From: Armatimonadota bacterium
GTDB taxonomy: Bacteria; Armatimonadota; Hebobacteria; CAIYQO01
Direction of reading: 5' to 3'
DNA length: 64,000 nt
Assembly: GCA_020060775.1 (NCBI GenBank)
Contig: JAGUZN010000220.1
Span: 984 to 64,983 of the forward strand
Positions 1 through 39,686 of this stretch are shown here, piece after piece. A model generated the notes under the pieces. That model saw nothing but the letters and a program-made list of their open reading frames with translations. It ran no database searches and was not told the DNA's origin. Both the position numbers and the translations under genes were made by a program. Each line of letters starts with the position of its first letter. The first letter of the stretch is position 1.

Positions 1-2
1 AC

Positions 3-101
3 CAGGTAAGTCAGGTCGTAACCGAGTTCCAACGCTTCCTTGAGGGGCAACTCACAACAGATGACCCGGATGCATTGCCGGTGCTGCAGATCGAGAGGTA
101 A
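3..101 (+). CDS. 3' end of an upstream gene (partial; open frame from window start to TAA at 99-101), probably co-transcribed with the following 969-aa gene
   Basis: Open reading frame without stops from position 3 in the frame ending at TAA 99-101; the ATG of the next gene follows 5 nt later. Confidence 0.3.
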   Translation, partial: QVSQVVTEFQRFLEGQLTTDDPDALPVLQIER

Positions 102-106
102 CTCGG

Positions 107-3016
107 ATGATTCAAGCCTGGGTCTTTTCAAAACTGGAACCAGTCAAAGATGACCCGATGGTGGTCGTGCGTGACCCGTTGGGATTGACGGAAGGCATGG
201 AGAACGCATTACATGCCTGGGGTAAAACACACACCTACGCTGTGATCCCTTGTGCGACTAACCTGCTCTTCCGATATAAATATGAAGAAGCACGGGCGGA
301 TGAAACCATTAAGAAAATACTCATCCTTGATCGTACTCCTTTGAGTCGGCGCACACGTCCTGATTATCATCGAGCAGCGGCGCCGTTCTATCCAGATATA
401 TTGGCGCAAACGCGCCCCGAGGCGTGTATCGAACTGGATCTGCGGCAGTTCTTGCGTGAACAAACAAACGATGCGTATTGGCCACAGGAAGTGAATGAGC
501 CACGCCTGGCCCGCCTGCTCATGAAATATCTCGATGGAGCTCTGCGTGCCCATGAGAATCTACGGGCGGCAAGCCCTGATCGTTTCACCGACCAGGATTT
601 AAAAACGATCATCGCTTTTGCGGCTCTCGGTGTACCGGAAGCTGCTTTTAAGAATCTTTCCGCCAGTGAGTATTGGAAGATCGGTCTGCGTGGTCATCAT
701 GAATTGCGCGGGTTGGAGCAGCTCATGCCTGAGATCACCGAGACGATCACCGGCAAACTGAAGAAGGCACCAGCCCCGTTCTGTTGGCTTGCTGATAAAT
801 ATGACCCAGACACGGTGATCCGGGCTTTTTACCTTTCCGTTGTGTTGGCACAGCATGTGACGCACTGGCAAACGCTGCCGGCGAATGTTGATCCGATCTT
901 TGGGCGTATGGGCGGCATCGCCCCCGAGACCTTGCAGGATGCTGCCCCCAAGCTGGTGAGCCTTGATCCGGCACGAGCGCAAAGCGACATTCGCGCGATG
1001 GAAGATAAGTTGACCGTTAAGAATTTGCATTTTCTGCTACTCGAACAGATGCAAATTGAGGCACGGTTCGCTGAGGTGATCGAGAAAGAGCAATACTCGG
1101 AATTATTCCGTTCCCTCTCGCTCATTCTCGCCCTTGATAATCTCTGCTCAACACACCCGACCCAGGAAGCGCAAAAGCGGGTGAGTGAGGCGTTACTGGC
1201 TAAACGTTCACAACGCGCGCTGGTTGACCTTCGCCCTTCAGCGACCTGGAAAATATTACGACAGGCATATCTCCGTGCCGTACGACTTCTCGCCTTGCGT
1301 GGGCAACTTGGCAAATTCGTCAAGGAGCTTGACCAATTGCCGGAAACTACGCAGGTGCTCTATCTGGCGCCCGGTCAAGAAAAAACCGTTGCCTTTCATG
1401 TGAAGCCGGATATTTCACTAGCCACCAATAGTGAGAGAGCTTCAGGGGAGATGCCATGGGCACTTCGGGTGTGCCCGGTATGTTATGAGCGTGGCTTAAT
1501 AGAAGAAATTAGTACGCGATCTGAAAAATTCGGATCGATCCCCGTCTTGGTTAGTTACATATGCGAAAACGGTTGCCAACCACAGAGTGGCGAACGCCTA
1601 CACAACGATCCAGATGACAAAAAGAGAGAGTATTTTAAGAAATATGATGTCGGTAAATTGGCCGAGATAGAAGAAATGGAAATACCATATTGGTATCCGA
1701 GAAATCGCATGATGAATGCCCCTGAAGATCAGGAATGTTGGGGAGTAAAATGGCGCGCTGGAACTAGTAACTTTCGAACTGTCGACGAGTTGTTTACAAA
1801 ACGAAATTTGTGGGCTCTCGCTGTACTCTTCAATGCAGCTTCTCAAGAGCAGACCAGCGATGTGCTTAGGTTTAGACTGGAAGCCATTTTACTAAATTTG
1901 TCTCGTATGCAAGGTAACACTACTGATCCTCGCTTCCCCAATAACATTATTCGAGGGACTTATTATACACCTCAAATTATGCGTGAATACTCAGTTTTGC
2001 CGTGGTATGCCGGTAAGATACGAAATCTAATTGATGGTTATTCTAAATTATACCCTTCATACCAGGGCTTTGGAGAGGTTTGCATTTCTACACAATCTGC
2101 ATGTTCAATGGATGCCATTCCAGATAATTCACTTGATTACATATTCACTGATCCACCGTATGGGGACAAGGTTCAGTATGGAGAACTCAACTTTGTATGG
2201 GAATCATGGATGGGGTGGAATACACTTTGGCATGATGATGAGATCATAATTAATGACGTCCGGGGCAAGACCGAGCTTGATTGGTCTGAAATGATGGAGT
2301 GTGTAATTAAGGAGTGTTACAGAGTCTTAAAGCCTGGTAGATGGCTCACTTTATGCTATCACGACACTTCGGAGGGAACTTGGGCACTTGTCCAGGACCT
2401 GATGAAAAACGCTGGTTTTATAGTGGACGTTTCAGGCAGTACTCTATTTATCGAGACAGAGCAGAAATCGTTCAACCAGCTTACGGCTGATATCGAAGAA
2501 ATGTTCTTTATGGCGCACCGCATCTCAGCGCTAACACACCGGCATCCCAGGAGCCAGATGGCATGCGGTCTCTACTGCATAATGGCAAAAGGCTTGCTGT
2601 ATGGATTGACGCCCGGAGAGGCCTACCGGTTTATGGTCGAACAGGGGCATCGGTGCTACAACGTCACCCCGTTTCAGCAGGAGATGTCCCATTTCGCGCG
2701 CATCCTCTCTGGCGAACTAATCGGTATGCCTATTAACGAGATTGCCTCCAGCGGCTATGTCATACATACGCTGGAGGCCAGTCTGTGGTGCCTGCTCACA
2801 ACAGGCTCATTCGAGGATGCTGTATTGACGGCGGTGAACCTGGGCGACGATACCGATACGACGGGATGCGTTGCCGGCGGGCTTGCTGGCGTGAGTTACG
2901 GAGATCATGCAATTAATGCTACCTGGTTATCAGTTATTGTCCGGTCATCTGATATGCGAGCGCTGTCGCAGCACTTTCTGGCAGTGATACCGCAAGAGAT
3001 CGGTATAGGAGTGTAG
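107..3016 (+). CDS. Large multidomain protein: N-terminal domain of unknown function with a Cys-rich Zn-ribbon (CPVCY...CENGC), an N6_N4-type DNA methyltransferase-like core (DPPY motif IV, then RVLKPGR), and a C-terminal ADP-ribosylglycohydrolase-like region
   Basis: Motif 'SMDAIPDNSLDYIFTDPPYGD' followed by 'CYRVLKPGRW' matches the PF01555-style beta-class MTase layout. C-terminal 'THRHP' and 'NLGDDTDTTGCVAGGLAGVSYG' match the ARH-family signature (GGDTDT.AAIAG.L.G). A canonical FxGxG SAM motif was not found; only a degenerate 'VDVSGST'. Confidence 0.6.
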   Translation: MIQAWVFSKLEPVKDDPMVVVRDPLGLTEGMENALHAWGKTHTYAVIPCATNLLFRYKYEEARADETIKKILILDRTPLSRRTRPDYHRAAAPFYPDILAQTRPEACIELDLRQFLREQTNDAYWPQEVNEPRLARLLMKYLDGALRAHENLRAASPDRFTDQDLKTIIAFAALGVPEAAFKNLSASEYWKIGLRGHHELRGLEQLMPEITETITGKLKKAPAPFCWLADKYDPDTVIRAFYLSVVLAQHVTHWQTLPANVDPIFGRMGGIAPETLQDAAPKLVSLDPARAQSDIRAMEDKLTVKNLHFLLLEQMQIEARFAEVIEKEQYSELFRSLSLILALDNLCSTHPTQEAQKRVSEALLAKRSQRALVDLRPSATWKILRQAYLRAVRLLALRGQLGKFVKELDQLPETTQVLYLAPGQEKTVAFHVKPDISLATNSERASGEMPWALRVCPVCYERGLIEEISTRSEKFGSIPVLVSYICENGCQPQSGERLHNDPDDKKREYFKKYDVGKLAEIEEMEIPYWYPRNRMMNAPEDQECWGVKWRAGTSNFRTVDELFTKRNLWALAVLFNAASQEQTSDVLRFRLEAILLNLSRMQGNTTDPRFPNNIIRGTYYTPQIMREYSVLPWYAGKIRNLIDGYSKLYPSYQGFGEVCISTQSACSMDAIPDNSLDYIFTDPPYGDKVQYGELNFVWESWMGWNTLWHDDEIIINDVRGKTELDWSEMMECVIKECYRVLKPGRWLTLCYHDTSEGTWALVQDLMKNAGFIVDVSGSTLFIETEQKSFNQLTADIEEMFFMAHRISALTHRHPRSQMACGLYCIMAKGLLYGLTPGEAYRFMVEQGHRCYNVTPFQQEMSHFARILSGELIGMPINEIASSGYVIHTLEASLWCLLTTGSFEDAVLTAVNLGDDTDTTGCVAGGLAGVSYGDHAINATWLSVIVRSSDMRALSQHFLAVIPQEIGIGV

Positions 3017-3314: not shown

Positions 3315-4388
3315 TTGAAAGGCGTGGAGCAGACCGTGGCAAAGTTGTTCATGAACGGCCTACAGCTAATTCTATCTTCCGATAGCTTCACTGCATACGA
3401 GGCAGAAATGCCCGAAGATGGTAGCTTGCGGAAACTGCGCGACCGATATGGCGACGGGTGGTTTTTCCATCGTCAAGGTAATAAGGTATATGGTTTTCCA
3501 CAAGTCGATCGTCCTACCATCCCATTTGGCACGTCCGTAGCATTAAAATGCCAAGAAAACCTTTCTATGCTAGCTGCGGTAGTCGGTGATATTATAGGAC
3601 GACGTCGATTCGGAGGCCAGGTATTATTCCGTCATCGTGGTGCGGAGTTCATCAGTAGTACAAAGGAACTCATCAGTGATGTCGCCAAACAAATGCCGGA
3701 TCTTCCCGACATAGTCAAGTTATTCAAAGCTTATCCACGTTTTACTTTAGAGGCAAAAGTCCTTGAGCTACGCGATGGCGATGGTGGGATCGGGTTATTC
3801 GTTACGTTGGGAAGCAGGTGGCGTATCGAAGCACCTCTCCACGATCTGTTGAGTAAAGGTATTGACCTTCAAGGTATGTACGTCGTTCGAAGGTATCCCG
3901 AGAAAGGCCAGCGGAGGCTTGTTGGTAGAATCTCCTGCATTGATAAAGGAACCGTCAAATTGCTAGAGTCATTCGACGGTACGGCTGAGATTGCGTGCGA
4001 CGACGTGTGGCTTGAAGGGAATAGAGAAAATTTTGCCTATTGCTTGAAGCACTTACTGAAGGCGCGTTACCTATCATTTGAGACTAAGCGTAGGGAAATA
4101 GAAGACCAGTTATTGTCGGGGCCTAAATTTCAGACAACGATACAAAGCATTGCACAGTCATTTACAAATAAGCCTCCCATGCAACTCACTCCTGATCTCC
4201 AGTGCATTGTTGGCGATATGATTTCCGTGAAAAATTTCGGCGGATACTGCACTGTGCGTGCCGCTTCTCCAGTGCAATGTTGCTATGATGCTGCACGGAC
4301 GCAACGGATGGAGTATCCCTGGAAAGGGATCGAAAATTTGGTCCGTTTAGTCGTGACACCTTTACAAGAAAATCACCGACGATACTAG
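3315..4388 (+). CDS. Hypothetical protein, candidate APAZ-like partner of the downstream short Argonaute (no recognizable catalytic motif; first gene of the operon)
   Basis: 357-aa ORF (TTG/ATG start ambiguity at 3315/3351). Stop TAG at 4386-4388 lies 2 nt before the pAgo ATG (tight coupling); an AT-rich promoter-like gap is upstream (3017-3314). The role is inferred from synteny with short-pAgo operons only. Confidence 0.4.
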   Translation: MKGVEQTVAKLFMNGLQLILSSDSFTAYEAEMPEDGSLRKLRDRYGDGWFFHRQGNKVYGFPQVDRPTIPFGTSVALKCQENLSMLAAVVGDIIGRRRFGGQVLFRHRGAEFISSTKELISDVAKQMPDLPDIVKLFKAYPRFTLEAKVLELRDGDGGIGLFVTLGSRWRIEAPLHDLLSKGIDLQGMYVVRRYPEKGQRRLVGRISCIDKGTVKLLESFDGTAEIACDDVWLEGNRENFAYCLKHLLKARYLSFETKRREIEDQLLSGPKFQTTIQSIAQSFTNKPPMQLTPDLQCIVGDMISVKNFGGYCTVRAASPVQCCYDAARTQRMEYPWKGIENLVRLVVTPLQENHRRY

Positions 4389-4390
4389 TT

Positions 4391-5605
4391 GTGTTCCCCG
4401 ATAGTGAACAAGGACCTGTTGAACGATTCCTTCGTTCGTTTCGCGACGGGATATCGTCGTCAGCCTTTGCATCTGGCTTTGTCAGGAACTTTTCTCTCGT
4501 CAACTTAAAGATTGAAAAGGTGCGAGTACCCTGGCTGGGGAAAGGGAGTCAGGCTCCTGCGCAAGCGTATAGAAAGGCGATAGATGATTACTTGGCATCC
4601 GCAGATTCGGTGCCAGATGCTGGGATCGTCATTCTCCTAGACGAACATGCCAAACTTCCCGATGCGGTAAACCCGTATCTACATGCTAAATCATCATTGC
4701 TCACGGCAGGTGTCCCGGTCCAGGAACTACGGGTGCCGACTATCAAGCAAGCTGACACATCGCTTTCCTATACCCTGCGTAACATCGCTCTCGCTCTGTA
4801 TGCAAAAATGGGGGGAACCCCATGGACAGTCGACCAGGATATGACGATCAGCGATGAACTGGTGATTGGCATGGGGAGCTGCGCACTCGCAGAGAGCCGT
4901 TTTATAGAGCGTGAAAGATATGTTGGCATCACTACCGTCTTTCGAGGAGATGGCAGCTACCTACTGGGGAACATCTCCAAAGAATGTCCGTACCGTGAAT
5001 ATCCGCAAGTTCTGGAGAGCGAAACTATATCTGTATTGAATGAAATCAAATATCGGAACGGTTGGCGTCCCGGTGATACCGTGCGGATCATATTTCACAC
5101 CTACAAACCATTAAAAAATATCGAGGTAGAAGCGATTGCTGCCAAGTGTGTGCAAGCTATCAGCGGTGAGCAGAATATCGAGTTTGCATTCCTCACGATT
5201 TCTCATGATCACCCTTTTAGACTTTTTGATATCGACCAGCAAGGTATCAAGGGTACGAAAGGCATCTATGTTCCCCAGAGGGGAATTATTATGCAGCTTG
5301 GACGATACACTAGGTTGCTTTGTACAACAGGACCAGAGTTAGTCAAACGTGAAGGATTGCCTTTGCCAGCACCTCTGCTTGTTCATCTGCATCCTGCATC
5401 AACCTACCGTTCATTAGATTACCTAGCTGAACAAGTATTGAAATTTACTGCGCTCTCGTGGCGTTCGACATTGCCTGCGCCGAAACCAGTAACAATCTTT
5501 TACTCTGACCTGATTGCGCAATTCCTGGGTCGCTTACAGCGTATTCCTGATTGGTCTCCGGCAACTCTAAACGCAAAATTACGTGCGAGTCGGTGGTTTC
5601 TATGA
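4391..5605 (+). CDS. Short prokaryotic Argonaute (MID-PIWI only), predicted catalytically inactive
   Basis: PIWI hallmark 'LYAKMGGTPW'. MID 5'-end-binding-like motif 'YLHAKSSLLTAGVPVQ...IKQ' (Y-K-Q-K spacing). RNase H catalytic positions replaced ('VIGMGS' instead of GxDV, 'IFHTYK' instead of RDG). Size of 404 aa is typical of short pAgos. Confidence 0.7.
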   Translation: MFPDSEQGPVERFLRSFRDGISSSAFASGFVRNFSLVNLKIEKVRVPWLGKGSQAPAQAYRKAIDDYLASADSVPDAGIVILLDEHAKLPDAVNPYLHAKSSLLTAGVPVQELRVPTIKQADTSLSYTLRNIALALYAKMGGTPWTVDQDMTISDELVIGMGSCALAESRFIERERYVGITTVFRGDGSYLLGNISKECPYREYPQVLESETISVLNEIKYRNGWRPGDTVRIIFHTYKPLKNIEVEAIAAKCVQAISGEQNIEFAFLTISHDHPFRLFDIDQQGIKGTKGIYVPQRGIIMQLGRYTRLLCTTGPELVKREGLPLPAPLLVHLHPASTYRSLDYLAEQVLKFTALSWRSTLPAPKPVTIFYSDLIAQFLGRLQRIPDWSPATLNAKLRASRWFL

Positions 5606-6843
5606 CGACGTATTTGTCAGGAGTATATGCTCAGCAACTTAGTACCCTAGCGACACATATCGCTGATGATGCAGTGTGGCCATCTCCGTACGCCGGGTTT
5701 CTTTACTATCTGTGTAACAAATACGATCAGCAGTTTCTGGCACCTTTGATTAACCCTTCACCGCCATGTGTTGAGCTCGGGCGGCTTTACGAGGCACCGA
5801 TTCTTGCATCAGCAGGATATTTATTCGCGCTTAACCATCCTGTAGTTCGTGCAAGTTCCGAAGCTTGGCATATTGGGTTTCAACGGCTTGCTGGGCGCGA
5901 TCCCTTCCCAATTGACCGCCAGTCATTCGTATATCGTCCAATAGAACTGCTTGGTATTACACTTGGAGTGAAGCACTGCCCTAATACTACGCAGGCAGAG
6001 ATTGATTGGCTTATAAATGTGCTACAGAGTGCTGAAAGCCGGCTGAAGAGTGCGTCCTGTTGGCAGTACCTGCTTGGTATGTATGCTTCACGACTACTGG
6101 GTAATTCCTGGGCAAAGCGTTCCTGGGATATTGGGCAATTCCCTGTGGATGACTTGAGCATCGTGGTATGGCTGTGCGCCAATACTCCTGATTTAGCGTT
6201 TGAATTCGGTGTAGACCAATTATACAAGCAAGCAGAGGAATCATTACTGACCCAGTGTGCAAAAACGGAGGTTACCATCCCAGATCCCGCACGTGCTGCA
6301 ATACTCTACTCTAGTCTTGACCGAGCTGTGAGCCGGAGTATTGAATCAGAGCACGAGCGCAATTGGCAAATAGGCCGTGATCAAGCCGATGCCCTCTCAA
6401 TCGTTATCACGTTATGCCGTAGATTTGATTTGTGTGTAAGGCAACTCCAACGTAGGCAGCGAAGTCGCAATCCTTTCACTGTACAAGATGAGTATGATGT
6501 CCAAGACCTGATGCATGCTTTGTTGAAGTTACACTTTGATGATGTTCGTCCCGAGGAGTGGACACCGTCATATGCTGGCAACGCATCACGCGTCGATTTT
6601 TTGCTTAAACGAGAGATGATCGTTGTTGAGGTAAAGATGACTCGCGATAGCCTAGCTCAACGTGAGCTAGCGGACCAATTAATTATTGATAAAGAGCGGT
6701 ATCGATCACATTCTGACTGCCGTATACTGGTGTGTTTTGTTTATGATCCGGAGCATCGCTGCACGAACCCGGCAGCATTGGAGAATGACCTCAGCGAGCA
6801 GATCGGTCTATTTAGGGTTGAAGCAATCGTCTCACCTGCGTAG
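5602..6843 (+). CDS. Protein with a C-terminal PD-(D/E)xK nuclease-like domain (restriction-endonuclease fold); candidate effector of the short pAgo operon
   Basis: ATG at 5602 overlaps the pAgo stop TGA (5603-5605), i.e. ATGA coupling. C-terminal motif 'DEYDVQD...SRVDFLLKREMIVVEVKMTRD' has D-x11-E-V-K spacing. The N-terminal ~300 aa are of unknown function. Confidence 0.5.
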   Translation: MTTYLSGVYAQQLSTLATHIADDAVWPSPYAGFLYYLCNKYDQQFLAPLINPSPPCVELGRLYEAPILASAGYLFALNHPVVRASSEAWHIGFQRLAGRDPFPIDRQSFVYRPIELLGITLGVKHCPNTTQAEIDWLINVLQSAESRLKSASCWQYLLGMYASRLLGNSWAKRSWDIGQFPVDDLSIVVWLCANTPDLAFEFGVDQLYKQAEESLLTQCAKTEVTIPDPARAAILYSSLDRAVSRSIESEHERNWQIGRDQADALSIVITLCRRFDLCVRQLQRRQRSRNPFTVQDEYDVQDLMHALLKLHFDDVRPEEWTPSYAGNASRVDFLLKREMIVVEVKMTRDSLAQRELADQLIIDKERYRSHSDCRILVCFVYDPEHRCTNPAALENDLSEQIGLFRVEAIVSPA

Positions 6844-7290: not shown

Positions 7291-8298
7291 TTACAGATCA
7301 AGCAATGATGCCGAATTCTCTTGAAACAACACCCCCATGCGGATATACCGCTGCACCATCACATTCGACCGATGACCGGTCTGCTGCATGATAGATCGCT
7401 CGTTTGCACCTGCACGGGCGGCGGCGGTGCAGTGGCCGGCGCGCAGGGAGTGACCGCTGTAGCGTTTCGGATCAAGGCCGATCTCTTTCACCATCTTCTT
7501 GATGAGATTGGCGACGGCACGATCCGATAAGCGCTCACTGCAGAGTTTGTCATGACGGTTGATGCCGCGGAAGAGGGCGCCGCCGGTAATCCCGCTGGAT
7601 TCCAGCCAGGATTTCAAGGCACGCACTGGACAGGTTTCTTCATGAGTGCCAAATGGTATGGCGACCCAACGCCCTTCACCTTCTTGATCTGTTTTTGATC
7701 GGCGGAGGCAGATAACGACTCCTTCCTCCCTGAAGGTCAGGTCGGCGACATCAAAGGCGACCAACTCGGAGCGCCGGAAGGCGCCAGCGTATCCCAGGAG
7801 TAGCAGTGCGCGGTCCCGCCGGCCTTTCAATGTCTCTGGTAATACCGCCATGATGCGTCTCATGTCATCGGTCATCAAGGCATCGACCTGGCGGGCGGTG
7901 ACGCCGATCCGCCGGCGAATGCCGCGCATGACGGCCCGCACGGCGGCGTGTTGGGTGGGGGAGGGGTGGCCAGCGTGTTGGTGGATGGCGCTGATGGCGG
8001 CCATATAGCGCGAGAGCGTGCTGTACTTGTGGTCGGTCGTCGCCATCGCCGTCATGTAGCAGGCAATCGTCTCAGGGCTGGCCGGCATCGACGGCAAGTG
8101 GTATTGTTCGCACCAGGCCACGAACTGCTGCCAATCCCGCTCGTAGGCCTCCCGCGTGTGTTGCGAGATACCTTCCTCGATGAACTCCTGGACTTGCTCG
8201 ATCAGTGGAACGAGAAGGGTGTGATCGGGGTGCTGGTTGGCACTGGGCCCGATCCGGGCAGGCAGTGATGCTGGCTGGGTGATGGGAGCCTGATCCAT
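7291..8298 (-). CDS. Tyrosine site-specific recombinase / phage-type integrase
   Basis: C-terminal catalytic region 'HSLRAGHCTAAARAG...TGHRS..MVQRYIR' (R..H..R..Y pattern). It sits at the GC-content transition at the right edge of the lower-GC island. Confidence 0.8.
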   Translation of the reverse strand: MDQAPITQPASLPARIGPSANQHPDHTLLVPLIEQVQEFIEEGISQHTREAYERDWQQFVAWCEQYHLPSMPASPETIACYMTAMATTDHKYSTLSRYMAAISAIHQHAGHPSPTQHAAVRAVMRGIRRRIGVTARQVDALMTDDMRRIMAVLPETLKGRRDRALLLLGYAGAFRRSELVAFDVADLTFREEGVVICLRRSKTDQEGEGRWVAIPFGTHEETCPVRALKSWLESSGITGGALFRGINRHDKLCSERLSDRAVANLIKKMVKEIGLDPKRYSGHSLRAGHCTAAARAGANERSIMQQTGHRSNVMVQRYIRMGVLFQENSASLLDL

Positions 8299-8561
8299 TA
8301 ACTGAGTCTTATCGGAAGCTAGAATAGCTTCGAGCTCAGAATAGAGTCAAGTCGCGCCAGTTCAATCCTAAATGTGTTCCCCCTCGGGCTGTCCCCAGCC
8401 GTCATCCTCTGCATTTTCTACCCGAAATGCCTCTAGGCGAGTACGTTTGGCTACACATTTTGCCCTGGAGGTGCCATGTGTTCACGACAGATCGGTTTCT
8501 AGCTTCCGTTAAGACTCAGATATGAGCTACAACGTGTCTGGTAACACCGGTAGGGGGCAGG

Positions 8562-9134: not shown

Positions 9135-9939
9135 GGGGGTCCGTTTGATTGCGCTTCGAGGCGATACCCGCTTGTTGCCTTTGGTCTCATGGTGGCAGAC
9201 AGAAATCCATACCGTGTTAAGCGACAAGCTGCAAGCGGTGGTGCTGGGCGGCAGCACGGTGCTTGGCGATTTCCAGCCGGGGTGGAGCGATGTCGATGTC
9301 TGCGTGGTGCTGCGTACGCCGATCACGGAAGCCGAAGGCGCTGTTATCGGACAGGTGCACGACGCCATGCGTGCCCACTTCATCGACGGTGGGCAAGATG
9401 GCTGGCGATCAGGTCAGGCCATTGAAGGTGCCTATATCACCGGCGAGATGTTGCAGTATGGACACGCTGGCACCTGTTACGTCGCCGGCGGTAGCACGCG
9501 CTGGTGGGGTGTGAAAGATCCTATTTCGCCGTTCGACCGCCTGATATATGCCCAACACGGTTGCTGGTTGTTTGGTGAAGAAGTGCCTATTGCCCTGCCA
9601 GATGGAAAGGCTTTGCGGGCACAATCTATCCGCGATTCGCAGGAATTCATAAACCCACCAGCCGGGTGCCTGGAATCCGCCATCTGGCTGGCCGGCATCA
9701 TGCACTGGTTGTCCCGCACGCTGGTCTTCTGGCGGGATGGGGAACTGGTATCCAAAACCGCCGCGCTGGAGCGCGAGGTCGCCGCTGGTAGACCGCTGGC
9801 GAGCGCCTTCATCCTGCCCCTGGCCTTGCGGCGGGAGGGGAGTGCAGCGTGCCGGCAGCATGTTGATGATCTTCGGTATAATTACCAGGCGAATCTTGAT
9901 ACGGCTGTGCAGTCATTGGTCGAAGTCGGACTGCTGTAA
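9109..9939 (+). CDS. Nucleotidyltransferase, aminoglycoside adenylyltransferase (ANT/AadA)-like; true start probably downstream of 9109
   Basis: Pol-beta-type NTase motif 'LGGSTVLGDFQPGWSDVDVCVVL' (GS...SDxD); length is about that of ANT(3'')/(9) enzymes. Confidence 0.55.
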   Translation: MPGRGFLFQGVRLIALRGDTRLLPLVSWWQTEIHTVLSDKLQAVVLGGSTVLGDFQPGWSDVDVCVVLRTPITEAEGAVIGQVHDAMRAHFIDGGQDGWRSGQAIEGAYITGEMLQYGHAGTCYVAGGSTRWWGVKDPISPFDRLIYAQHGCWLFGEEVPIALPDGKALRAQSIRDSQEFINPPAGCLESAIWLAGIMHWLSRTLVFWRDGELVSKTAALEREVAAGRPLASAFILPLALRREGSAACRQHVDDLRYNYQANLDTAVQSLVEVGLL

Positions 9940-9951
9940 TAGGGAGGCTAT

Positions 9952-10497
9952 ATGTCCGGATGGATCGAGACTATGAGCAACGTGCAACTGCTACACCCGA
10001 CCACTGATATTGAGCCGGAATACCGGGCGTTCATCGCCGAATTTATCGAGCAGCAGGAGCCAGAGATGTTTTATCGTCTGCCGGGAGACGACTTCGCTGA
10101 ATTCGTGGCGCAGTTGCACCGAGAGGCGCGAGGCGAGGGGCTGCCGGACTGGGCCGTGCCGCAAAATACCCTCTGGGCGGTGCGCGACGCACGGCTGGTT
10201 GGCGTGTTGAAGCTGCGCCATCGCCTCACCCCGGCGCTAGAGAGCCGTGGCGGGCACATCGGCTACTTCGTGCGTCCCTCGGCGCGCGGGCGCGGAATTG
10301 CCACCCGCATGCTGGCGATGGCGCTCGACAAGGCACGAGCCCTTGGCCTCACCCGCGTGCTACTCACCTGCGACATTGACAACCATGCCTCAGCCCGCGT
10401 AATGGTGAAGAACGGCGGCGTGCGCACCACCGACAGCGCGGACCCCGGCACCGGGTTGCCGCTGGCGCGATATTGGATCGATTTGGAGACAAGATGA
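9952..10497 (+). CDS. GNAT family N-acetyltransferase
   Basis: 'GYFVRPSARGRGIATRMLAMAL...LTCDIDNHASARVMVKNGG' matches the acetyl-CoA binding motif A region. Confidence 0.7.
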   Translation: MSGWIETMSNVQLLHPTTDIEPEYRAFIAEFIEQQEPEMFYRLPGDDFAEFVAQLHREARGEGLPDWAVPQNTLWAVRDARLVGVLKLRHRLTPALESRGGHIGYFVRPSARGRGIATRMLAMALDKARALGLTRVLLTCDIDNHASARVMVKNGGVRTTDSADPGTGLPLARYWIDLETR

Positions 10498-11126
10498 CGC
10501 AGACCCACTCGGCCATCCGCTGCACCCTCTTCGACTTCGCCGGCACGCTCAGCCCCACGCCGTACTTCTGGCCGCTGGGGGCCGACTTTTGCGCGGTGGT
10601 GACGGAGGCCATCTTTACCGGGGAGAACAAGGTACGCTGGGCCAGCCAGTGGTGCCGCGGTCAGCTCACTTCGTTGGATATCGCGAATTATCTCTCCGGG
10701 TTGACCGGTCTGTCGCCGGAACGCATCCTTACCGCATTAGACGAGGGCTGTGCCAAACTGCAGTTGCATCCGGCTATCTGGCGTTTTGCACAGGCTCAGC
10801 GGGCGCAGGGACGGCGTACTGCGCTGGTGACAATCAACATGGACGTCTTCACCCGCGTCGTCGCCCCCGCGCACGGCTTTAACCGGGTGTTCGATGTGGT
10901 GGTGAACTCGGCGGACTACGGCACGGAGGAGAAGAACGCGCTGTGCGAGATTGCCTTCGGTCAGTTGGATGGCTGCACCTTCGAGAACAGCCTGCTTATC
11001 GATGATATGCCAAAGTGTCTGGACGCCTTTCGGGCATGCGGGGGGATGGCGTACCAGTATACGACGGATGAGGCGTTTGCAGAATGGGCGCAAACTCTGG
11101 AGGAGAGTGGATATGTCCTGGCCTAA
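10494..11126 (+). CDS. HAD-superfamily hydrolase
   Basis: ATGA overlap with the preceding GNAT stop; N-terminal 'TLFDFAGTL' (DxxGT motif I). Confidence 0.55.
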   Translation: MTQTHSAIRCTLFDFAGTLSPTPYFWPLGADFCAVVTEAIFTGENKVRWASQWCRGQLTSLDIANYLSGLTGLSPERILTALDEGCAKLQLHPAIWRFAQAQRAQGRRTALVTINMDVFTRVVAPAHGFNRVFDVVVNSADYGTEEKNALCEIAFGQLDGCTFENSLLIDDMPKCLDAFRACGGMAYQYTTDEAFAEWAQTLEESGYVLA

Positions 11127-33659: not shown

Positions 33660-35342
33660 TTGCACCAAATACACTATTTGTGTGCCATCATGCCGATTAG
33701 GACTGATAATATGAGTTTGTCAACAAAAACTCCTCAAAATCCAGATCTGGCAAATCCTAGCAGTTGCCATTCCAGTTTAGGACCCCTTAGGCTGCCGCAG
33801 TCATTTTATGGCGATGCGTTCACGACGTTTCTATATGGAGCGGCGATATGCTGTATCGTTACGAAGGTCGATGCTGGTTATTCATGGTCTAATTTCGGTC
33901 TGTTGGCAATCATCTATATATTTTTTGATTGGGTTAGCAGAATTCTTTTACCATCATGTTTGCCCAATGACGACTTAGCTGTGAGAAATCGCATATACTT
34001 GAATGTGCTAAAAGCACTACTGGAAGCTGCAGGTTTATACTTGCTTACCGCTTTCCTTCTATCTGTTTTCACAACACCATTATACGGGTTATTTGCAGGA
34101 TTTTTGATCGTCAATTTATTGTGGAATTTGTTGTTGTTGTATATTATGGGTGGCCTTGGATGGAGGGACTTACAAGATGTTTGTTTTAAAGGTAATGGAA
34201 TGGATAACGAAGCTATAGCATTACATTCGTCGACCATTACGGAAATCGAAGCTCTAATAGAGAAGGCTGATATCTCTACTGACAATGCAAACACTAGTAG
34301 TCAAGTCATAAAAACGTATAATAATCACATAAAGCTTCGTAGTAGTATCAATTCAATAGGCGCAATCTACCGGATGCTCATACAATTGTTCGCATTTCAT
34401 GTTCGATATGGATATGTAGTTATTGTAATATTTGTTGCCAAGATGCTATTGGAGAGTACAACGAATACTTGGGGAAGTTTTCTGTTGAAAAAAACATATT
34501 TTTCTGTAGTGCTTGATTTCGCACAAGTCACAACAATGCACATAAGCATTTTTTGTGATAATGGCTATTTGGATGAGATATTTCTTACTGTATTAATATT
34601 AATACTTTGTGGTTTTGTTTTACGCTCTGTTAATATCAGTAATGTTTTTCAGAGTGATTGGTGGAAAAGTTACATTGCTAGTATTAAAGATAAAAACTAT
34701 GAAATGCTTGTCCCGTGGATGAAGATAATATGCAGTGTACCACTTTTCTTTGCTTGTTTGTACATATTATATATAATATGTTTTGTTGTATACACTTATT
34801 ACCCGCAGTTGTTCGCAGGTATTGATAGTGAAGGTGTAGGCATTGGCTTCCCAATCTTACTTTTTATTTATATTTTGTTGTTTTTCATACCTTTCTTATT
34901 TTTTAAATACGCACAACTTAATAAAATTATGAAAAAATCAATTGCTTCAAATGGAGATAACCATAAGAATCACGCCTCTATTTCTTGCTCATGCCCTCCT
35001 TCCAAAATCCAAGGAGAGGAGGAGAATAAAGCGATTGTCATTGAGAATTTACGATTTCAACAGGCTTGTAGAAATGGGTCATTATCACTTTATATCATTC
35101 TATTACTACTTTACTTCGCGTTGCCGATAAAAGACTTTGCAATATTTATTGCATTCCAGCAGGCCTGTGTTACGCTATTCCTATGTATCGCCGTATCTTG
35201 TCCACTTGAACAGAGAGATGAACCTATTGGCAACTTATGTCGAATGAACTCCCCGAGACCGACTTCGTGCCCTCCAAATATTAACGACGGGCTTGATGAT
35301 ACAACATCAGTGACGCCGAAAGAACAGGTAACAAGTTCATAG
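33660..35342 (+). CDS. Multi-pass integral membrane protein of unknown function (strongly AT-rich gene)
   Basis: 560-aa ORF with many hydrophobic segments; local GC content is far below the surrounding DNA. Confidence 0.5.
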   Translation: MHQIHYLCAIMPIRTDNMSLSTKTPQNPDLANPSSCHSSLGPLRLPQSFYGDAFTTFLYGAAICCIVTKVDAGYSWSNFGLLAIIYIFFDWVSRILLPSCLPNDDLAVRNRIYLNVLKALLEAAGLYLLTAFLLSVFTTPLYGLFAGFLIVNLLWNLLLLYIMGGLGWRDLQDVCFKGNGMDNEAIALHSSTITEIEALIEKADISTDNANTSSQVIKTYNNHIKLRSSINSIGAIYRMLIQLFAFHVRYGYVVIVIFVAKMLLESTTNTWGSFLLKKTYFSVVLDFAQVTTMHISIFCDNGYLDEIFLTVLILILCGFVLRSVNISNVFQSDWWKSYIASIKDKNYEMLVPWMKIICSVPLFFACLYILYIICFVVYTYYPQLFAGIDSEGVGIGFPILLFIYILLFFIPFLFFKYAQLNKIMKKSIASNGDNHKNHASISCSCPPSKIQGEEENKAIVIENLRFQQACRNGSLSLYIILLLLYFALPIKDFAIFIAFQQACVTLFLCIAVSCPLEQRDEPIGNLCRMNSPRPTSCPPNINDGLDDTTSVTPKEQVTSS

Positions 35343-35384
35343 TTAATGGTATATAAGTGATCATCAGATTGGAGTGACCAAGCG

Positions 35385-36842
35385 ATGTCTATGATTGATC
35401 TAGTCATAATAGGAGTTTATTTGATGGCGTTGTTCTGCTGGGCTATTTATATTGGCCTGCGAGAAAACGCCCAAGATTTTTTGGTTTTCTCGCGGCGTGC
35501 TCCTTTTGTGCTGGTATTGTTTTCTATTGTAGCTACCTGGGTTGGCGTTGGCACGACCGTAGTGACAGCGGCATCGGCATACGAATCCGGTATCTCACTA
35601 GGATTGATCGCCTGCCTTGGGGGCGTGTTGGGGTCTATCGGTGCCGCAATCTTTGCCCCTCGTCTGAAAGCGTTTGGAGACCGTTTCAACGCGCATACCA
35701 TCGGAGACTTCTTCCTGATCCGGTATTCAAACGGTGGACGCTTGATGGCTGGTGCACTGATAACAATCGTCTATTCACTGCTGACCGCCGCGCAACTCGT
35801 AGGGCTTGCAACGCTCTTGAAGGTTTGGACTGGGCTTCCTGTGGAGGTCGTCATCATTTTTGCTGCGTTTTCCACCGTAGCCTATACGGCGTTCGCTGGG
35901 ATCAAAAGCGATTTTTATACCGACATCATACATTTTATAGTTATGGCAATTGTTCTCTTTGTTATCCTATTGCCATTGACACTGGATAAAATTGGCGGAT
36001 TACATGGATTGCTGCGATTACCTCATACTTATTTCGATCCCTTCTCCTACGGAGGGCCAGCTCTATTCATCGCTGGAATGATCTTTGGCGCAGGCAGTGT
36101 TTTCGTGACCATGGAGCTTTGGCAACGCGTCTACGCATCAACAACCGGACGTGCCGCACGTATCTCGCTTGCAGTTGCCATCCTTCTTATCGTTCTCTTT
36201 TACGCGGTATCCACTGTGTTGGGTATGTCAGCAAAGCTACTATTACCGAATCTGCCGAATCGTGATTTTGCCTTGTTTGCGATGATGAAAGAGTATTTAC
36301 CTACAGGTATGCTGGGGCTAGGGATGTCAGGATTCATGGCGATTATTCTGTCTACCTTAAACTCAACACTGATGGTAACCTCTGCGACCTTCACCAAGGA
36401 TTTCTGGTGTGGAGCTCTTAATAAATCCGCTGATGACCAAAAGGCATTGTTATCTGTGGGCCGAATTTCTACATTTGTGAGCGGAGCTATTGGTCTGGGG
36501 ATTGCCTTGATACTACCTGATCTGGTTGCCTTAAGTGTCAATGGCATGTTCATGTTGCTGATCATCCTTCCAGCCATCGCTGGGGGATTCTTCTGGCGAC
36601 GTGCTACTGCCACGGCTGCAACGCTTTCCGTCTTCGCAGGAGCGCTTGTGACAGTGATTTTCTTGAAAATCGATGCTGGTATCGCGTTTGTGCCTGGTTT
36701 TCTCACAAGCCTTCTAGTTTTCGTTATTGGCTCTCTTGTCACTGAGCACTCTATAGAAGAAAATATTGGAGTTGTTTCTATGTGGCGAGGGAAAGCGGAA
36801 ATCCCGTCGATGCATGAAGGAGATGTTCATGACTTACGTTAA
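35385..36842 (+). CDS. Sodium:solute symporter family (SSS) transporter
   Basis: N-terminus 'LVIIGVYLMALFCWAIYIGL...DFLVFSRRAPFVLV...ATWVGVGTTV' typical of SSS/PutP-like permeases; ~13 TM segments. Confidence 0.65.
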   Translation: MSMIDLVIIGVYLMALFCWAIYIGLRENAQDFLVFSRRAPFVLVLFSIVATWVGVGTTVVTAASAYESGISLGLIACLGGVLGSIGAAIFAPRLKAFGDRFNAHTIGDFFLIRYSNGGRLMAGALITIVYSLLTAAQLVGLATLLKVWTGLPVEVVIIFAAFSTVAYTAFAGIKSDFYTDIIHFIVMAIVLFVILLPLTLDKIGGLHGLLRLPHTYFDPFSYGGPALFIAGMIFGAGSVFVTMELWQRVYASTTGRAARISLAVAILLIVLFYAVSTVLGMSAKLLLPNLPNRDFALFAMMKEYLPTGMLGLGMSGFMAIILSTLNSTLMVTSATFTKDFWCGALNKSADDQKALLSVGRISTFVSGAIGLGIALILPDLVALSVNGMFMLLIILPAIAGGFFWRRATATAATLSVFAGALVTVIFLKIDAGIAFVPGFLTSLLVFVIGSLVTEHSIEENIGVVSMWRGKAEIPSMHEGDVHDLR

Positions 36843-37932
36843 TACTGTGGAGCAAGTAAGCGATAAGCTGATGGCTGCTACCGATTCTGCGAATTGTTCT
36901 GCGATGTCAGCCTTACTCCACCAGGTGTGCCAATCGCTTCAAGAGTCTGACGCATCATTCTTGCGTCATTGGTATAATAGTCGGCTTACACGCGCCTGCG
37001 AAAACCCTATGCTTGGCGAAAAAGCCGTTACCATCTTCGCAGATTTGCTAGGAATTACCGTCGAGACGGCACAATGCGTTGAGAAGCCATGGATGCTTCT
37101 ATACATCCATGCACTCTTATTAGATGACATGATTGATTATATCCCTAGAGAAGAATCAAAAAAAGTTCAATCATTATGCAGCGCTTTCGATAGGGAACAC
37201 AATAAAGTATGTGAGCTGCTATTGAATGAAAATTTTGTGGTGTATTCACATCACCATCAGCGCTTCAATGCTGAAGCATGGGCAGCTATAACTTACGAGA
37301 TTGAATGGTCAAAAGGAACTAGATTCACATCACATAATGAAGCGCCACGTCAGCAAGGCCTCAAAGCCGCTCTCGCAAAGTCGTGTGCTACCATGCTTAT
37401 GCTTGCTGAACGTGGTATACCTCTTTCATCAGAACAGGAAGAGGGCATTATTACATTATGCGAAGGTATTCAACTTCTAGACGATTTTGCTGATATGACA
37501 GAAGATTATATGCAAGGACGTATGAATAGGTTGTTGAATACAACATATCGATGGATAAGGAGAAATCTGCCATGCATAGATATAGCTTATCTGGGCAAAT
37601 ACCAGCTACTCGTCTCTGCGATTCTTTCTTCTGCGATTACCTGCACATGGATTGATGCGGCAAATCGATATGAGCAGACATTGCAGATATTTAAACCCTC
37701 TAGTGAGTGCTGGACTGCTCAATATTTTTTGCAACAATCAGTGGAATGTCGACTATGCAGCACTGCATTAACTGATTTACTCACGCAAAATCGTTGCCTG
37801 TTGGATCAACTCATCACAGCTCTGAGTGTGAACGAAGAAGAATTAGCGTGTAAGTTAACAACCGGATGCCTAGCCGGTTTATGGCAAGATATTCGCTATA
37901 TTATTGGGACAGGACCAAAAGCAAGTAATTGA
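36829..37932 (+). CDS. Isoprenoid synthase fold protein (polyprenyl synthetase / class I terpene synthase-like) with two Asp-rich motifs
   Basis: 'HALLLDDMIDY' (DDxxD) and ~125 aa later 'GIQLLDDFADMTED' (second DDxxD preceded by a G..Q-like context). Start placed at ATG 36829, overlapping the symporter stop. Confidence 0.4.
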   Translation: MTYVNTVEQVSDKLMAATDSANCSAMSALLHQVCQSLQESDASFLRHWYNSRLTRACENPMLGEKAVTIFADLLGITVETAQCVEKPWMLLYIHALLLDDMIDYIPREESKKVQSLCSAFDREHNKVCELLLNENFVVYSHHHQRFNAEAWAAITYEIEWSKGTRFTSHNEAPRQQGLKAALAKSCATMLMLAERGIPLSSEQEEGIITLCEGIQLLDDFADMTEDYMQGRMNRLLNTTYRWIRRNLPCIDIAYLGKYQLLVSAILSSAITCTWIDAANRYEQTLQIFKPSSECWTAQYFLQQSVECRLCSTALTDLLTQNRCLLDQLITALSVNEEELACKLTTGCLAGLWQDIRYIIGTGPKASN

Positions 37933-38321
37933 CCGTGGGCAATTCCATCATCGCCTGGGCAATATAGACACTTTTTTCTGAATTAGGTGACAGTATGGGC
38001 AAACTGAAGTGTTCTCAGGAGGCGCGTTTTTTCTTCCGGCATTTTGCCCGGCGTCGTCGCATCTCCTCATAATCGGGTAACGCGTATGCCGGTTCTTCCC
38101 CCTGTGCCCTGGCAGCTTTAGCGACTTGGCACCTGAGTACCCCACGTGCGAAGATATCGACGAGTTCCGCCAGGCGGGCCTCGGGGGTCATCTTGGTCGG
38201 GTCGATGGTGGTATTGAACATGGGACACACCCCTTTCATGAACGTATGACGGACAATACCTCAACATCGGCTGACATGGGAAGGGGATGGCGGAAGATTG
38301 TTTTTGAGGATAACGTAGGAT

Positions 38322-39686
38322 ATTTTTCGCACTTTCACCGAGGGGTTGCGGTGTAGCCCTTTCGCTGAGTAGAGTGTAAGCGCCAACTTACCATACTCAC
38401 GAAAGGGACTACACACGATGAACACTACGACAATCACTGGTGAGAGTCAAGCCCAAGCCGGGCTGGTGACGATCAATGAGGGGGAGCTGCGGGCGCATCT
38501 CGACCAGATCGTCACCGGCGCGGTGGAAGAGACGCTGAACCAATTGCTTGACGCGGAAGCGGAGGCGTTGTGCCAGGCGCGACGCTATGAGCGGACGGCG
38601 ACGCGGCAAGATACGCGGGCCGGGCATTACGCGCGTAAGCTCCAGACGCGGGCGGGCGAGGTGACGCTGAAGGTGCCGAAACTGCGGCAGCTGACCTTTG
38701 AGACGGCGATCATCGAGCGCTACCAGCGCCGGGAAGCCTCGGTGGAAGAGGCGCTGATCGAGATGTACCTCGCCGGGGTGAGCGTCCGGCGGGTGGAAGA
38801 CATCACCGAGGCGCTGTGGGGCACGAAGGTGAGCGCCTCGACGGTGAGTGACTTGAATCAGAAGCTCTACCTGCGCCTGGACGACTGGTTGGCCCGTCCG
38901 TTGACCGGGGACTTTGCCTACGTCTATCTGGACGGGCTCTGGCTGAAGAAGAGTTGGGGCGGCGAGGTGCAGACGGTCTCGGTGCTGGTGGCGGTGGGGG
39001 TGAGCGCCGACGGCTACCGGGAGATCCTGGGAGTCGCCGAAGGCATGAAGGAGGATACCGCAAGTTGGCGGGACTTCCTGCGGGGGATGAGGGCGCGGGG
39101 ATTGCAGGGTATCCGGCTGGTGGTCTCCGATTGCTGCCTGGGGCTGGTGGAGGCGCTGGGCGAGGTCTTCCCCGAGGCTGCTTGGCAGCGGTGCGTGGTG
39201 CACTTCTACCGCAATGTGCTGGGACAGGTGCCGCGGGGTAAGAGCCGGGAGGTGGCGACGATGCTGAAGGCGATTCATGCCCAGGAGGATCGCACGGCTG
39301 CCCTGCAGAAAGCAGAGGATGTCGCCGGGAAACTCCGGGGGCTGAAGCTGGAGAAGGCGGCCAAGGTGCTCCAAGCGGGCATCGCCGATACGCTGGCGTA
39401 CTATGCCTTCCCGAGTGAGCACTGGCGGAGTCTGCGTACGAATAATCCGTTGGAACGACTGAATCGAGAGATCCGTCGGCGGACCCGCGTGGTGGGCTGT
39501 TTCCCCGATGGCCGCTCGGCGGTGATGCTGGTGACCGCGCGCCTGCGGTATCTGGCCAGTAAAGACTGGGGGACCAAGCGGTATTTGAACATGCAACGCC
39601 TCTGGGACGCGGCGCCTTCCGGGGAGGAGGGCGCGTAGCGCGGAGGACAATCAGGCGCTCATACTCTACAAAAAGTGCGAAAAACT
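38322..39686 (+). mobile_element. IS256-family insertion sequence (about 1.36 kb) with imperfect terminal inverted repeats
   Basis: Left end 'TTTTTCGCACTTT' (38324-38336) versus right end 'AAAGTGCGAAAAAC' (39673-39686), inner 'GAGTAGAGTGTAAGCGCC' / 'GGCGCTCATACTCTAC'; contains an intact mutator-type transposase. Confidence 0.65.
38418..39638 (+). CDS. IS256-family (mutator-type) transposase
   Basis: 406 aa; 'IEMYLAGVSVRRVEDITEALWG...YVYLDGLWLK...REVFPEAAWQRCVVHFYRNVL' is characteristic of Transposase_mut. Confidence 0.85.
   Translation: MNTTTITGESQAQAGLVTINEGELRAHLDQIVTGAVEETLNQLLDAEAEALCQARRYERTATRQDTRAGHYARKLQTRAGEVTLKVPKLRQLTFETAIIERYQRREASVEEALIEMYLAGVSVRRVEDITEALWGTKVSASTVSDLNQKLYLRLDDWLARPLTGDFAYVYLDGLWLKKSWGGEVQTVSVLVAVGVSADGYREILGVAEGMKEDTASWRDFLRGMRARGLQGIRLVVSDCCLGLVEALGEVFPEAAWQRCVVHFYRNVLGQVPRGKSREVATMLKAIHAQEDRTAALQKAEDVAGKLRGLKLEKAAKVLQAGIADTLAYYAFPSEHWRSLRTNNPLERLNREIRRRTRVVGCFPDGRSAVMLVTARLRYLASKDWGTKRYLNMQRLWDAAPSGEEGA

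Follow-up and report, generated by a model that had tools for sequence, protein, structure and literature searches.

In BREX phage defence, PglZ (BrxZ) is the effector with an alkaline-phosphatase fold, and invader-sensing or HTH-like modules have been proposed for its N-terminal region. The ADP-ribosylglycohydrolases (ARHs; PF03747) include DraG (2woc), Tri1 (6dre) and Lmo0067 (8za7), and a complete fold of the family has the N-terminal motifs GDALG, S/T-D-D and GNGSLMR, which would contribute half of the binuclear metal site. The BREX methyltransferase (MTase) BrxXI, an N6-adenine MTase of the PF01555 type, has a nested TRD insert holding a Cys4 Zn finger (PMC12839542, summarising the Goldfarb 2015 classification). 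In the loci L001, L003 and L008 the gene order is BrxC-PglZ-MTase-BrxL, and the fuller order in intact relatives runs from genes for ~385 aa and ~174 aa proteins through a BrxC-like ATPase, PglZ and a PglXI/BrxXI-like methyltransferase to BrxL.

The ORF under study occupies positions 107..3016 (+ strand) of the window, i.e. the whole stretch of 64,000 nucleotides analysed, and the ORF listing gave it as a single frame of 969 aa with an ATG start. Its sequence features are real and well beyond chance. All motifs quoted in an earlier sequence-only reading of this DNA were located by the listing and a motif search, namely DPPY (motif IV, retained) at aa 682-685 (2150..2161, +), RVLKPGR at aa 739, THRHP at aa 810 and the C-terminal D-x-D-T metal-binding motif GDDTDTTG at aa 913-920 (nt 2843-2866). 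That reading had described an MTase-like core with DPPY and a partial Zn ribbon, a missing SAM-binding motif and an ARH-related C-terminus, each of which was borne out by profile and motif searches. In the Pfam scan that it had proposed, ADP_ribosyl_GH (PF03747) matched aa 795-937 (E = 1.1e-33; 117.6 bits vs cut-off 26.2) and N6_N4_Mtase (PF01555) matched aa 677-754 with 21.4 bits vs a gathering threshold of 26.7, over profile positions 2-56 of 221. The patterns [DNEQ]P[FM]xGxG and hydrophobic-xGxG matched nowhere in the entire 969-aa protein. The same reading had overlooked that aa 1-410 are the N-terminus of PglZ and that each of its 'domains' covers part of its fold.

The first 410 residues (segment A; 107..1336, +) form the complete non-catalytic N-terminal region of PglZ, as they aligned with positions 1-413 of a PglZ-family HMM built from 113 homologues (543 bits) and were 51% identical to aa 1-415 of the PglZ protein P0006, with DNA 78% identical to L008 9484-10809. 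Another PglZ, P0243, is 81% identical to this segment and runs on as a normal PglZ beyond its end. The native PglZ start codon is kept 5 nt past the brxC stop, with M1 aligned to M1 of P0006, and the Shine-Dalgarno-like GAGAGG is preserved upstream, so the chimera may still be made. Segment B (aa 411-451; 1337..1459, +), identified with the PglZ HMM and L008, is a short piece (~40 aa) of the PglZ C-terminal domain. Its aa 414-451 fell on HMM positions 883-916 with 12 bits, a score reached by 0 of 2000 shuffles, and it showed 70% aa identity to the PglZ C-terminal fragment of L008 (E = 5e-21) and 75% DNA identity to L008 12211-12334. HMM positions 414-882 are missing from the ORF, which gave no Pfam match to PF08665, the PglZ alkaline-phosphatase-fold core; the Pfam PglZ domain of P0006 begins at aa 535, within the portion deleted here.

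Segment C (aa 452-795; 1460..2491, +) is the middle of a PglXI/BrxXI-type BREX methyltransferase, comprising part of the Zn-finger/TRD insert and that half of the Rossmann fold which bears motif IV. It matched positions 212-554 of 839 of our own MTase-family HMM (554 bits), its best PADLOC model was PglXI (positions 338-607 of 919, E = 7e-55), and it was 52-58% identical to the methyltransferases P0002 and P0003. The curated Pfam cut-off was not reached by this part and profile coverage was far from full length. Intact MTase relatives carry DPFCGSG/DPMCGSG at aa 91-115 and three CxxC knuckles, whereas the ORF has a single CxxC and no SAM motif I because the first ~211 methylase codons have been deleted. 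The methyltransferase likeness claimed earlier thus stood, but its assignment to the DUF1156/COG1743 anti-phage methylases was rejected, as NF042963 scored 17.3 bits vs a cut-off of 1000 and the PADLOC model DUF1156_MTase gave E = 0.003, PglXI/BrxXI being found instead.

Segment D (aa 796-969; 2492..3016, +) is the C-terminal half of an ARH, including THRHP and GDDTDTTG. It covers PF03747 positions 139-285 of 287 only, matches PDB chain 8za7 (332 aa) over residues 174-328 (the C-terminal ~47% of the fold) and is 69-74% identical to the stand-alone ARHs P0122 and P0121. The motifs GDALG, SDD(S) and GNGSLMR are all absent from the ORF, while the full-length ARHs P0122, P0136 and P0167 have them N-terminal to the breakpoint. 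P0122, the nearest full-length ARH, is surrounded in its locus L006 by the defence-type genes AIPR, WYL and SNF2. Many ARH homologues in the databases are of ~183 aa and start 12-16 aa ahead of the junction with segment C. A genuine 'half-ARH' family was rejected, since in the alignment all of these begin at the conserved Met of GNGSLMRI and in Okeania an N-terminal ARH ORF of 84 aa is found directly upstream; they are therefore fragments or split genes.

The order of the pieces follows that of the related operons. Immediately upstream, positions 3..101 (+) hold the 3' end of a BrxC/PglY-like ATPase gene, its last 32 codons and TAA stop (99-101), with tblastn identities of 61% to aa 1414-1446 of the 1446-aa BrxC of L003 and 78% to the last BrxC fragment of L008, and brxC precedes PglZ in L001, L003 and L008. 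The operonic upstream partner suspected earlier is thus a BrxC-like ATPase, as judged from these last 32 codons, and the defence-island setting was likewise correct, a pAgo and REase operon following downstream (3315..6843). In keeping with a decaying locus, the pAgo gene has a frameshift (~4325-4390) beside an A-run, and a tyrosine recombinase bounds the low-GC island. A BREX operon of this subfamily comprises the BrxC/PglY ATPase, methyltransferase, PglZ and BrxL; the window holds the BrxC tail, the PglZ and MTase fragments and no BrxL, the operon's upstream part lying outside it. Intact PglZ, MTase, BrxL and ARH proteins were used as tblastn queries against the whole 64-kb window, which yielded no BrxL, no MTase ends, no PglZ core and no ARH N-terminal half.

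By blastn, window positions 2-1329, 1337-1460, 1468-1744 and 2135-2384 are collinear with L008 9484-10809, 12211-12334, 13156-13433 and 13818-14067, and this 78%-identical DNA relative placed the breakpoints to a few bases. At the first junction (J1; 1330..1336) L008 jumps from 10809 to 12211, i.e. 1401 nt against 7 nt here, and ~1.4 kb is lost; this removes PglZ profile positions 414-882 and therefore the entire phosphatase/nuclease core. At the second (J2; 1457..1467), 821 nt in L008 correspond to 7 nt here, a loss of ~0.8 kb that runs from ~50 codons before the end of PglZ, across the intergenic spacer, through the first ~211 codons of the MTase. The two sides are joined at a common in-frame GGTG/GTG microhomology, and a hairpin TGGGCAC-N7-GTGCCCG (1457-1477) spans the junction. 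At the third (J3; 2491..2492), the MTase sequence NQLTAD abuts IEEMFFMAHR of the ARH; MTase homology stops at nt 2491, and the very next position, nt 2492 (ARH codon 108), is where the DNA begins to match the L006 ARH gene, with 1-2 nt of microhomology at most at the join. Missing here are the C-terminal ~290 aa of the MTase, BrxL and the first ~105-135 codons of the ARH gene. No repeats or IS remnants were found at the breakpoints. Sharp breakpoints and fragments collinear with the intact gene order, as seen by blastn against L008 and L006, fit a deletion-derived pseudogene. The GC3 values of the three segments (0.55, 0.41 and 0.62) might have suggested three separate donors, but an equal mid-gene GC3 dip in the intact L003 methylase weakens that reading.

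Among 5.8 billion clusters and 1.84 billion representatives, the architecture itself occurs in exactly one sequence. The ORF protein forms a cluster of its own, and an exhaustive phmmer search of the 1.84e9 representatives returned no protein joining any two of the PglZ, MTase and ARH families, each match being confined to one family segment. A 24-mer spanning J3 had no match in public metagenome contigs, a protein-pattern scan of metagenomes returned only methylases of 26-36% identity, and a scan of genome contigs for close strains gave only a 33%-identical MTase. The unusual functional domain pairing proposed earlier therefore found no support, as every 'domain' is a partial fold and the architecture is found in this one sequence only.

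These observations make it very probable that in-frame deletions in a BREX-like phage-defence operon left the ORF behind as a non-functional relic. In an ancestral BrxC-PglZ-MTase-BrxL operon, three collinear deletions by illegitimate recombination would each have removed one stretch: the PglZ phosphatase/nuclease core; the PglZ 3' end with the 5' ~211 codons of the methylase including SAM-binding motif I; and the 3' ~290 codons of the methylase together with brxL, whatever else lay in between and the 5' half of an ARH gene further downstream. Of these, the PglZ core deletion and its neighbour may represent one template-switching event that spared a 125-nt snippet. Since the frame is kept at every junction, translation from the native PglZ start codon reads through four fragments to the ARH stop. 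Such a relic of four gene fragments is almost certainly not a new enzyme. PglZ activity is predicted to be lost with the deleted core, methyltransferase activity with the SAM site and the incomplete Rossmann fold, and ARH activity with the halved fold and its three missing N-terminal motifs. The deletions appear to be recent, since no stop codons or frameshifts have accumulated yet. Counted against the relic reading were the fully open 2.9-kb frame, the retained segments, in which no decay is obvious and the motifs DPPY, RVLKPGR and GDDTDTTG remain whole, and the three in-frame junctions, which have a chance of ~1/27 if independent and neutral, but the ORF was picked for its length. Besides, the breakpoints at PglZ ~413 and MTase ~554 lie near the domain boundaries given for PglZ and BrxXI (PMC12839542).

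The open frame with its native translation signals might instead reflect a non-catalytic but selected neo-protein, in which the PglZ N-terminal region and the methylase Zn-finger/TRD insert serve as a BREX-derived factor with a DNA-binding, regulatory or dominant-negative role and the ARH half is a passive tail. The retention of the whole PglZ N-terminal region with a break close to a domain boundary, the mostly retained TRD insert and the in-frame joining throughout would fit this; however, the protein stands alone, without an orthologue in protein clusters, representatives or metagenome scans, the insert has lost its first Zn knuckles, the Rossmann and ARH folds are both broken off part-way, and its partners (BrxL, intact PglZ and intact MTase) are absent from the window. 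We consider it quite improbable. That the mosaic was made by one or two microhomology-mediated template switches and is expressed and retained by selection, as a non-catalytic union of a PglZ 'sensor' and the BrxXI DNA-recognition insert, seems to us very unlikely. If true, a selected neo-protein of this kind would be a live snapshot of domain shuffling among defence genes.

It is highly unlikely that the mosaic exists in no cell and arose in assembly, by collapsing or mis-joining the reads of an intact BREX operon with those of an ARH gene unrelated to it. In its favour, the 65,141-nt source contig is a draft, GC3 differs between the segments, the pAgo frameshift beside the A-run could be a sequencing error, and the junction-spanning 24-mer was in no public metagenome contig. 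However, three collinear junctions lie within 1.2 kb, one of them at the GGTG microhomology, and the breakpoints are free of repeats; as assemblers mis-join at shared repeats and there are none here, the junctions look like genuine illegitimate recombination. Moreover, the MTase GC3 dip is also present within the gene of an intact relative and the identical sequence is present at both NCBI and JGI. A bifunctional or novel enzyme coupling an MTase-like DNA-recognition core to an ARH-like catalytic domain is suggested by the intact DPPY and ARH C-terminal signature motifs and by the occurrence of the nearest full-length ARH among defence-type genes. Such an enzyme is extremely unlikely, as its ARH part is limited to Pfam positions 139-285 and lacks GDALG, SDD and GNGSLMR, its MTase part lacks motif I and two core strands of the published architecture (PMC12839542), and the families are joined in no other of the 1.84e9 representative proteins.

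The ORF is best regarded as a deletion scar, an ordinary gene-decay product. Its chief value is one of caution, as textbook motifs of two enzyme families in a long clean ORF of a defence island gave the look of a novel fusion, and the scar was exposed by profile coverage, uniqueness and comparison with intact relatives. Since the apparent fusion is such a scar, domain-architecture screens should ask that each domain be covered almost in full and that the architecture occur independently more than once. The locus also documents the inactivation of a BREX-like system, with the PglZ effector core, the SAM-binding part of the methylase and BrxL all missing, and one sequence gives no order or timing of their loss.

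Compared with known systems, the ORF sits in the PglZ slot immediately 3' of brxC and its aa 1-410 share 51-85% identity with the N-terminal region of PglZ proteins of ~970 aa, but it lacks the whole phosphatase core and its C-terminal domain is reduced to ~40 aa. It resembles BREX type-3 PglXI/BrxXI in the DPPY motif IV and the CxxC/Zn-finger insert of segment C, and the order of motif I, insert and motif IV in its intact relatives agrees with the published architecture (PMC12839542), but motif I, the first Zn knuckles and the C-terminal HTH region are absent. The parent operon includes BrxL, whereas the review gives type 3 as BrxL-less (PMC12839542). With the ARH family it shares a strong Pfam match and the conserved THRHP and GDDTDTTG, but has half the fold, without the conserved N-terminal motifs. 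It is also alike in kind to the deletion-derived chimeric pseudogenes of decaying defence islands, with which it shares collinear fragments of neighbouring genes, breaks inside folds, microhomology at a junction, a singleton distribution and a frameshifted neighbour gene; the sole difference is that its three junctions are in frame, yielding a long clean ORF that resembles a multidomain protein.

The ORF at 107..3016 (+ strand, ATG start, 969 aa in the ORF listing) is a deletion scar joining pieces of a PglZ gene, a PglXI/BrxXI-like BREX methylase (MTase) gene and an ADP-ribosylglycohydrolase (ARH) gene. It carries DPPY at aa 682, RVLKPGR at aa 739, THRHP at aa 810 and GDDTDTTG at aa 913, and a whole-protein scan found neither D/N-P-F-x-G-x-G nor any hydrophobic-x-G-x-G, in agreement with the sequence-only reading that the SAM-binding FxGxG is absent or degenerate. 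That reading was right about the ORF itself and about its place between an upstream gene (stop at 99-101) and a pAgo operon (pAgo/REase), and the partner gene it suspected upstream was found, the 32 codons before position 101 being a BrxC C-terminus (61-78% identity). The proposed DUF1156/COG1743-type membership was not borne out, as DUF1156 models gave hardly any signal; the top PADLOC model was the BREX methylase PglXI (E = 7e-55, aa 511-793). In Pfam, ADP_ribosyl_GH reached E = 1.1e-33 over aa 795-937, and N6_N4_Mtase, at aa 677-754, stayed below its threshold (21.4 bits against 26.7). All profile matches were partial, the ARH match spanning only Pfam positions 139-285 of 287 and the PglXI match positions 338-607 of 919.

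Among 5.8 billion protein clusters the ORF was a singleton, and its relatives fell into two disjoint sets, PglZ proteins (~970 aa) aligning to aa 1-~410 only (51% identity to the relative P0006) and methyltransferases (~845 aa) aligning to aa ~444-795 only (52-58% identity to P0002 and P0003). Family HMMs of 113 PglZ and 6 MTase homologues placed ORF aa 1-410 on PglZ positions 1-413, aa 414-451 on PglZ positions 883-916 and aa 452-795 on MTase positions 212-554 of 839. The second, short PglZ piece scored 12 bits, approached by 0 of 2000 shuffles, and matched a C-terminal PglZ fragment from a close relative at 70% identity (E = 5e-21); the two aligned stretches given by full-length PglZ matches in an exhaustive phmmer search (1.84 billion representatives, 7740 hits) fit this piece. 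The best 150 of these 7740 hits contained no two-family join, all lying within aa 1-418, 435-817 or 794-963, and neither a copy of the junction nor a close relative turned up when genome and metagenome contigs were scanned. In the relatives' methylases DPFCGSG falls at aa 91-115, with DPPY following at aa 430-454; in P0002, Pfam assigns aa 74-128 to the portion of PF01555 that holds motif I. Loss of the first ~211 methylase codons thus accounts for the missing FxGxG.

The parent operon was conserved at three loci, L001 (993-14580), L003 (3866-19782) and L008 (3484-19327), as genes for ~385 aa, ~174 aa, a BrxC-like ATPase (~1450 aa), PglZ (~975), MTase (~845) and BrxL (~678). This six-gene BREX-like family is widespread in metagenomes (>100 PglZ homologues). 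The relative L008, 78% identical at the DNA level, is an assembly that is noisy and has broken-up gene calls, and in DNA alignment four window stretches were collinear with it: 2-1329 with 9484-10809, 1337-1460 with 12211-12334, 1468-1744 with 13156-13433 and 2135-2384 with 13818-14067. Thus 1401 nt and 821 nt of L008 correspond to 7 nt each in the window, at the first (J1, 1330..1336) and second (J2, 1457..1467) junctions. Ordinary PglZ sequence carries on past J1 in the relative P0243 (81% identity to ORF aa 138-410), and J2 sits at an in-frame GGTG common to both sides. J2 is also straddled by a perfect 7-bp hairpin, TGGGCAC-N7-GTGCCCG (1457-1477), with a PglZ-derived left arm and an MTase-derived right arm, which may be a coincidence or connected with junction formation. 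At the third junction (J3) the last MTase-homologous base is nt 2491, and DNA homology to a stand-alone ARH gene (in L006, 71% identity) starts at nt 2492, its codon 108. A search of the whole 64-kb window found BrxL, the PglZ core, the methylase ends and the ARH N-half nowhere else.

In alignment with full-length and short homologues the ARH part begins right after the conserved GNGSLMRI motif, and it corresponds to residues 174-328 of the 332-aa chain of Lmo0067 (8za7) and 266-364 of the 366-aa chain of Tri1 (6dre). Homologue alignment and motif scan found THRHP and DTDT retained in it, and no GDALG, SDD or GNGSLMR. Many database 'ARH' proteins of ~177-192 aa (among P0121-P0240) start at the conserved Met of GNGSLMRI; these are gene-call fragments or split genes and can pass for a 'half-ARH' family. 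Okeania sp. KiyG1 (L005 4608-5546) has an 84-aa N-terminal ORF 139 nt upstream of its short ARH, in an NAD-salvage/NrtR neighbourhood. The closest full-length ARH, P0122 (69% identity; L006 1-12858), has defence-like neighbours (DUF4420, AIPR, a WYL regulator, an SNF2 helicase and a SACS-like protein), a hint of a defence association for the ARH subfamily itself.

The functional 'MTase-ARH fusion' proposed from sequence was not supported: all matches are partial, the SAM site is missing, only half of the ARH fold is present and the 150 best phmmer hits include no two-family protein. A selected, non-catalytic neo-protein is improbable, and is retained as a reading because all three junctions are in frame (a chance of ~1/27 if independent) and two breakpoints lie close to domain borders; the in-frame junctions are partly a selection bias, since the ORF was picked for its length. 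Misassembly is also improbable. The compositional steps across the segments (GC3 0.55, 0.41 and 0.62) look suspicious, but an intact relative has an equal mid-methylase dip; all segments are below the host's GC3 of 0.70-0.79. Under the favoured reading, a deletion scar, the events look recent because the ORF has an undisrupted frame, undamaged motifs, and both the native start and the Shine-Dalgarno-like GAGAGG ahead of it; with these preserved, the chimera may still be translated. The 125-nt snippet retained between J1 and J2 makes it conceivable that both could have arisen in one template-switching event.

The first ~7 kb of the window form a low-GC island (~0.48 GC against 0.58-0.63 for the chromosome), containing the BREX remnant, a frameshifted RsAgo-like pAgo and its helical-REase partner and bounded by a tyrosine recombinase. 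The recombinase (Phage_integrase, 7291..8298, - strand) lies at the GC step, and after it comes an inverted repeat of 26 nt with 92% complementarity (8299-8324 / 8497-8522); together they are probably the island's integration module. The long pAgo (3315..5605; NCBIfam NF052569, PADLOC pAgo_II) is made up of two ORFs, 3315..4388 and 4391..5605, that differ in frame. The switch lies near GGAAAGGGATCGAAAATTTGG (~4325-4390) and reflects a genuine inactivating frameshift or else an error in sequencing. The Aga helical-REase (DpnII/MboI-type, 5551..6843) appears undamaged, and its start codon probably overlaps the pAgo stop in an ATGA at 5602-5605. Farther along, LeuRS and SMC genes mark the window as chromosomal. 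A second low-GC patch (33660..39650; 0.40-0.45 GC at 34-38 kb) holds two ORFs without Pfam match (33660..35342 and 36766..37932) and a sodium:solute symporter, and adjoins an IS256/Mutator-family transposase (38418..39638).

With L008 the BrxC tail and the N-terminal part of PglZ share 78-85% identity and the PglZ C-terminal piece 70%, the methylase reaching only 46-50% (window 1460..2491 against L008 12494-15213 and L003 13579-16170). Mid-methylase GC3 dips to 0.25-0.45 in the window, and to 0.5-0.6 against ~0.88 in the flanks in the intact L003 gene. This discordant identity and the dip suggest that the TRD/methylase cassette has been laterally exchanged among these loci. BrxL is reported as absent from type 3 BREX (2026 NAR survey, PMC12839542), whereas the parent operon couples a type-3-like methylase with BrxL and may be an unclassified BREX subtype. 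In the published domain map of PglZ, an N-terminal region of ~430 aa precedes the phosphatase core, and a beta-sandwich lies at the C-terminus (PMC12839542); the ORF retains the first of these and a sliver of the last, the core being gone. In BrxXI the Rossmann-fold MTase core is interrupted between its strands 2 and 3 by a Zn-finger TRD insert of ~250 aa, and an HTH region of ~290 aa follows at the C-terminus (PMC12839542). What the ORF has left of this is part of the insert, with one CxxC knuckle out of three, and the half of the Rossmann fold that carries motif IV; of the all-alpha ARH fold, too, one half is left. A product that lacks the SAM site and the phosphatase core and has only half of the binuclear metal site would not be expected to show any of the parental activities of the three families, and the ORF is an ordinary gene-decay product in a defence island, of a kind already known.
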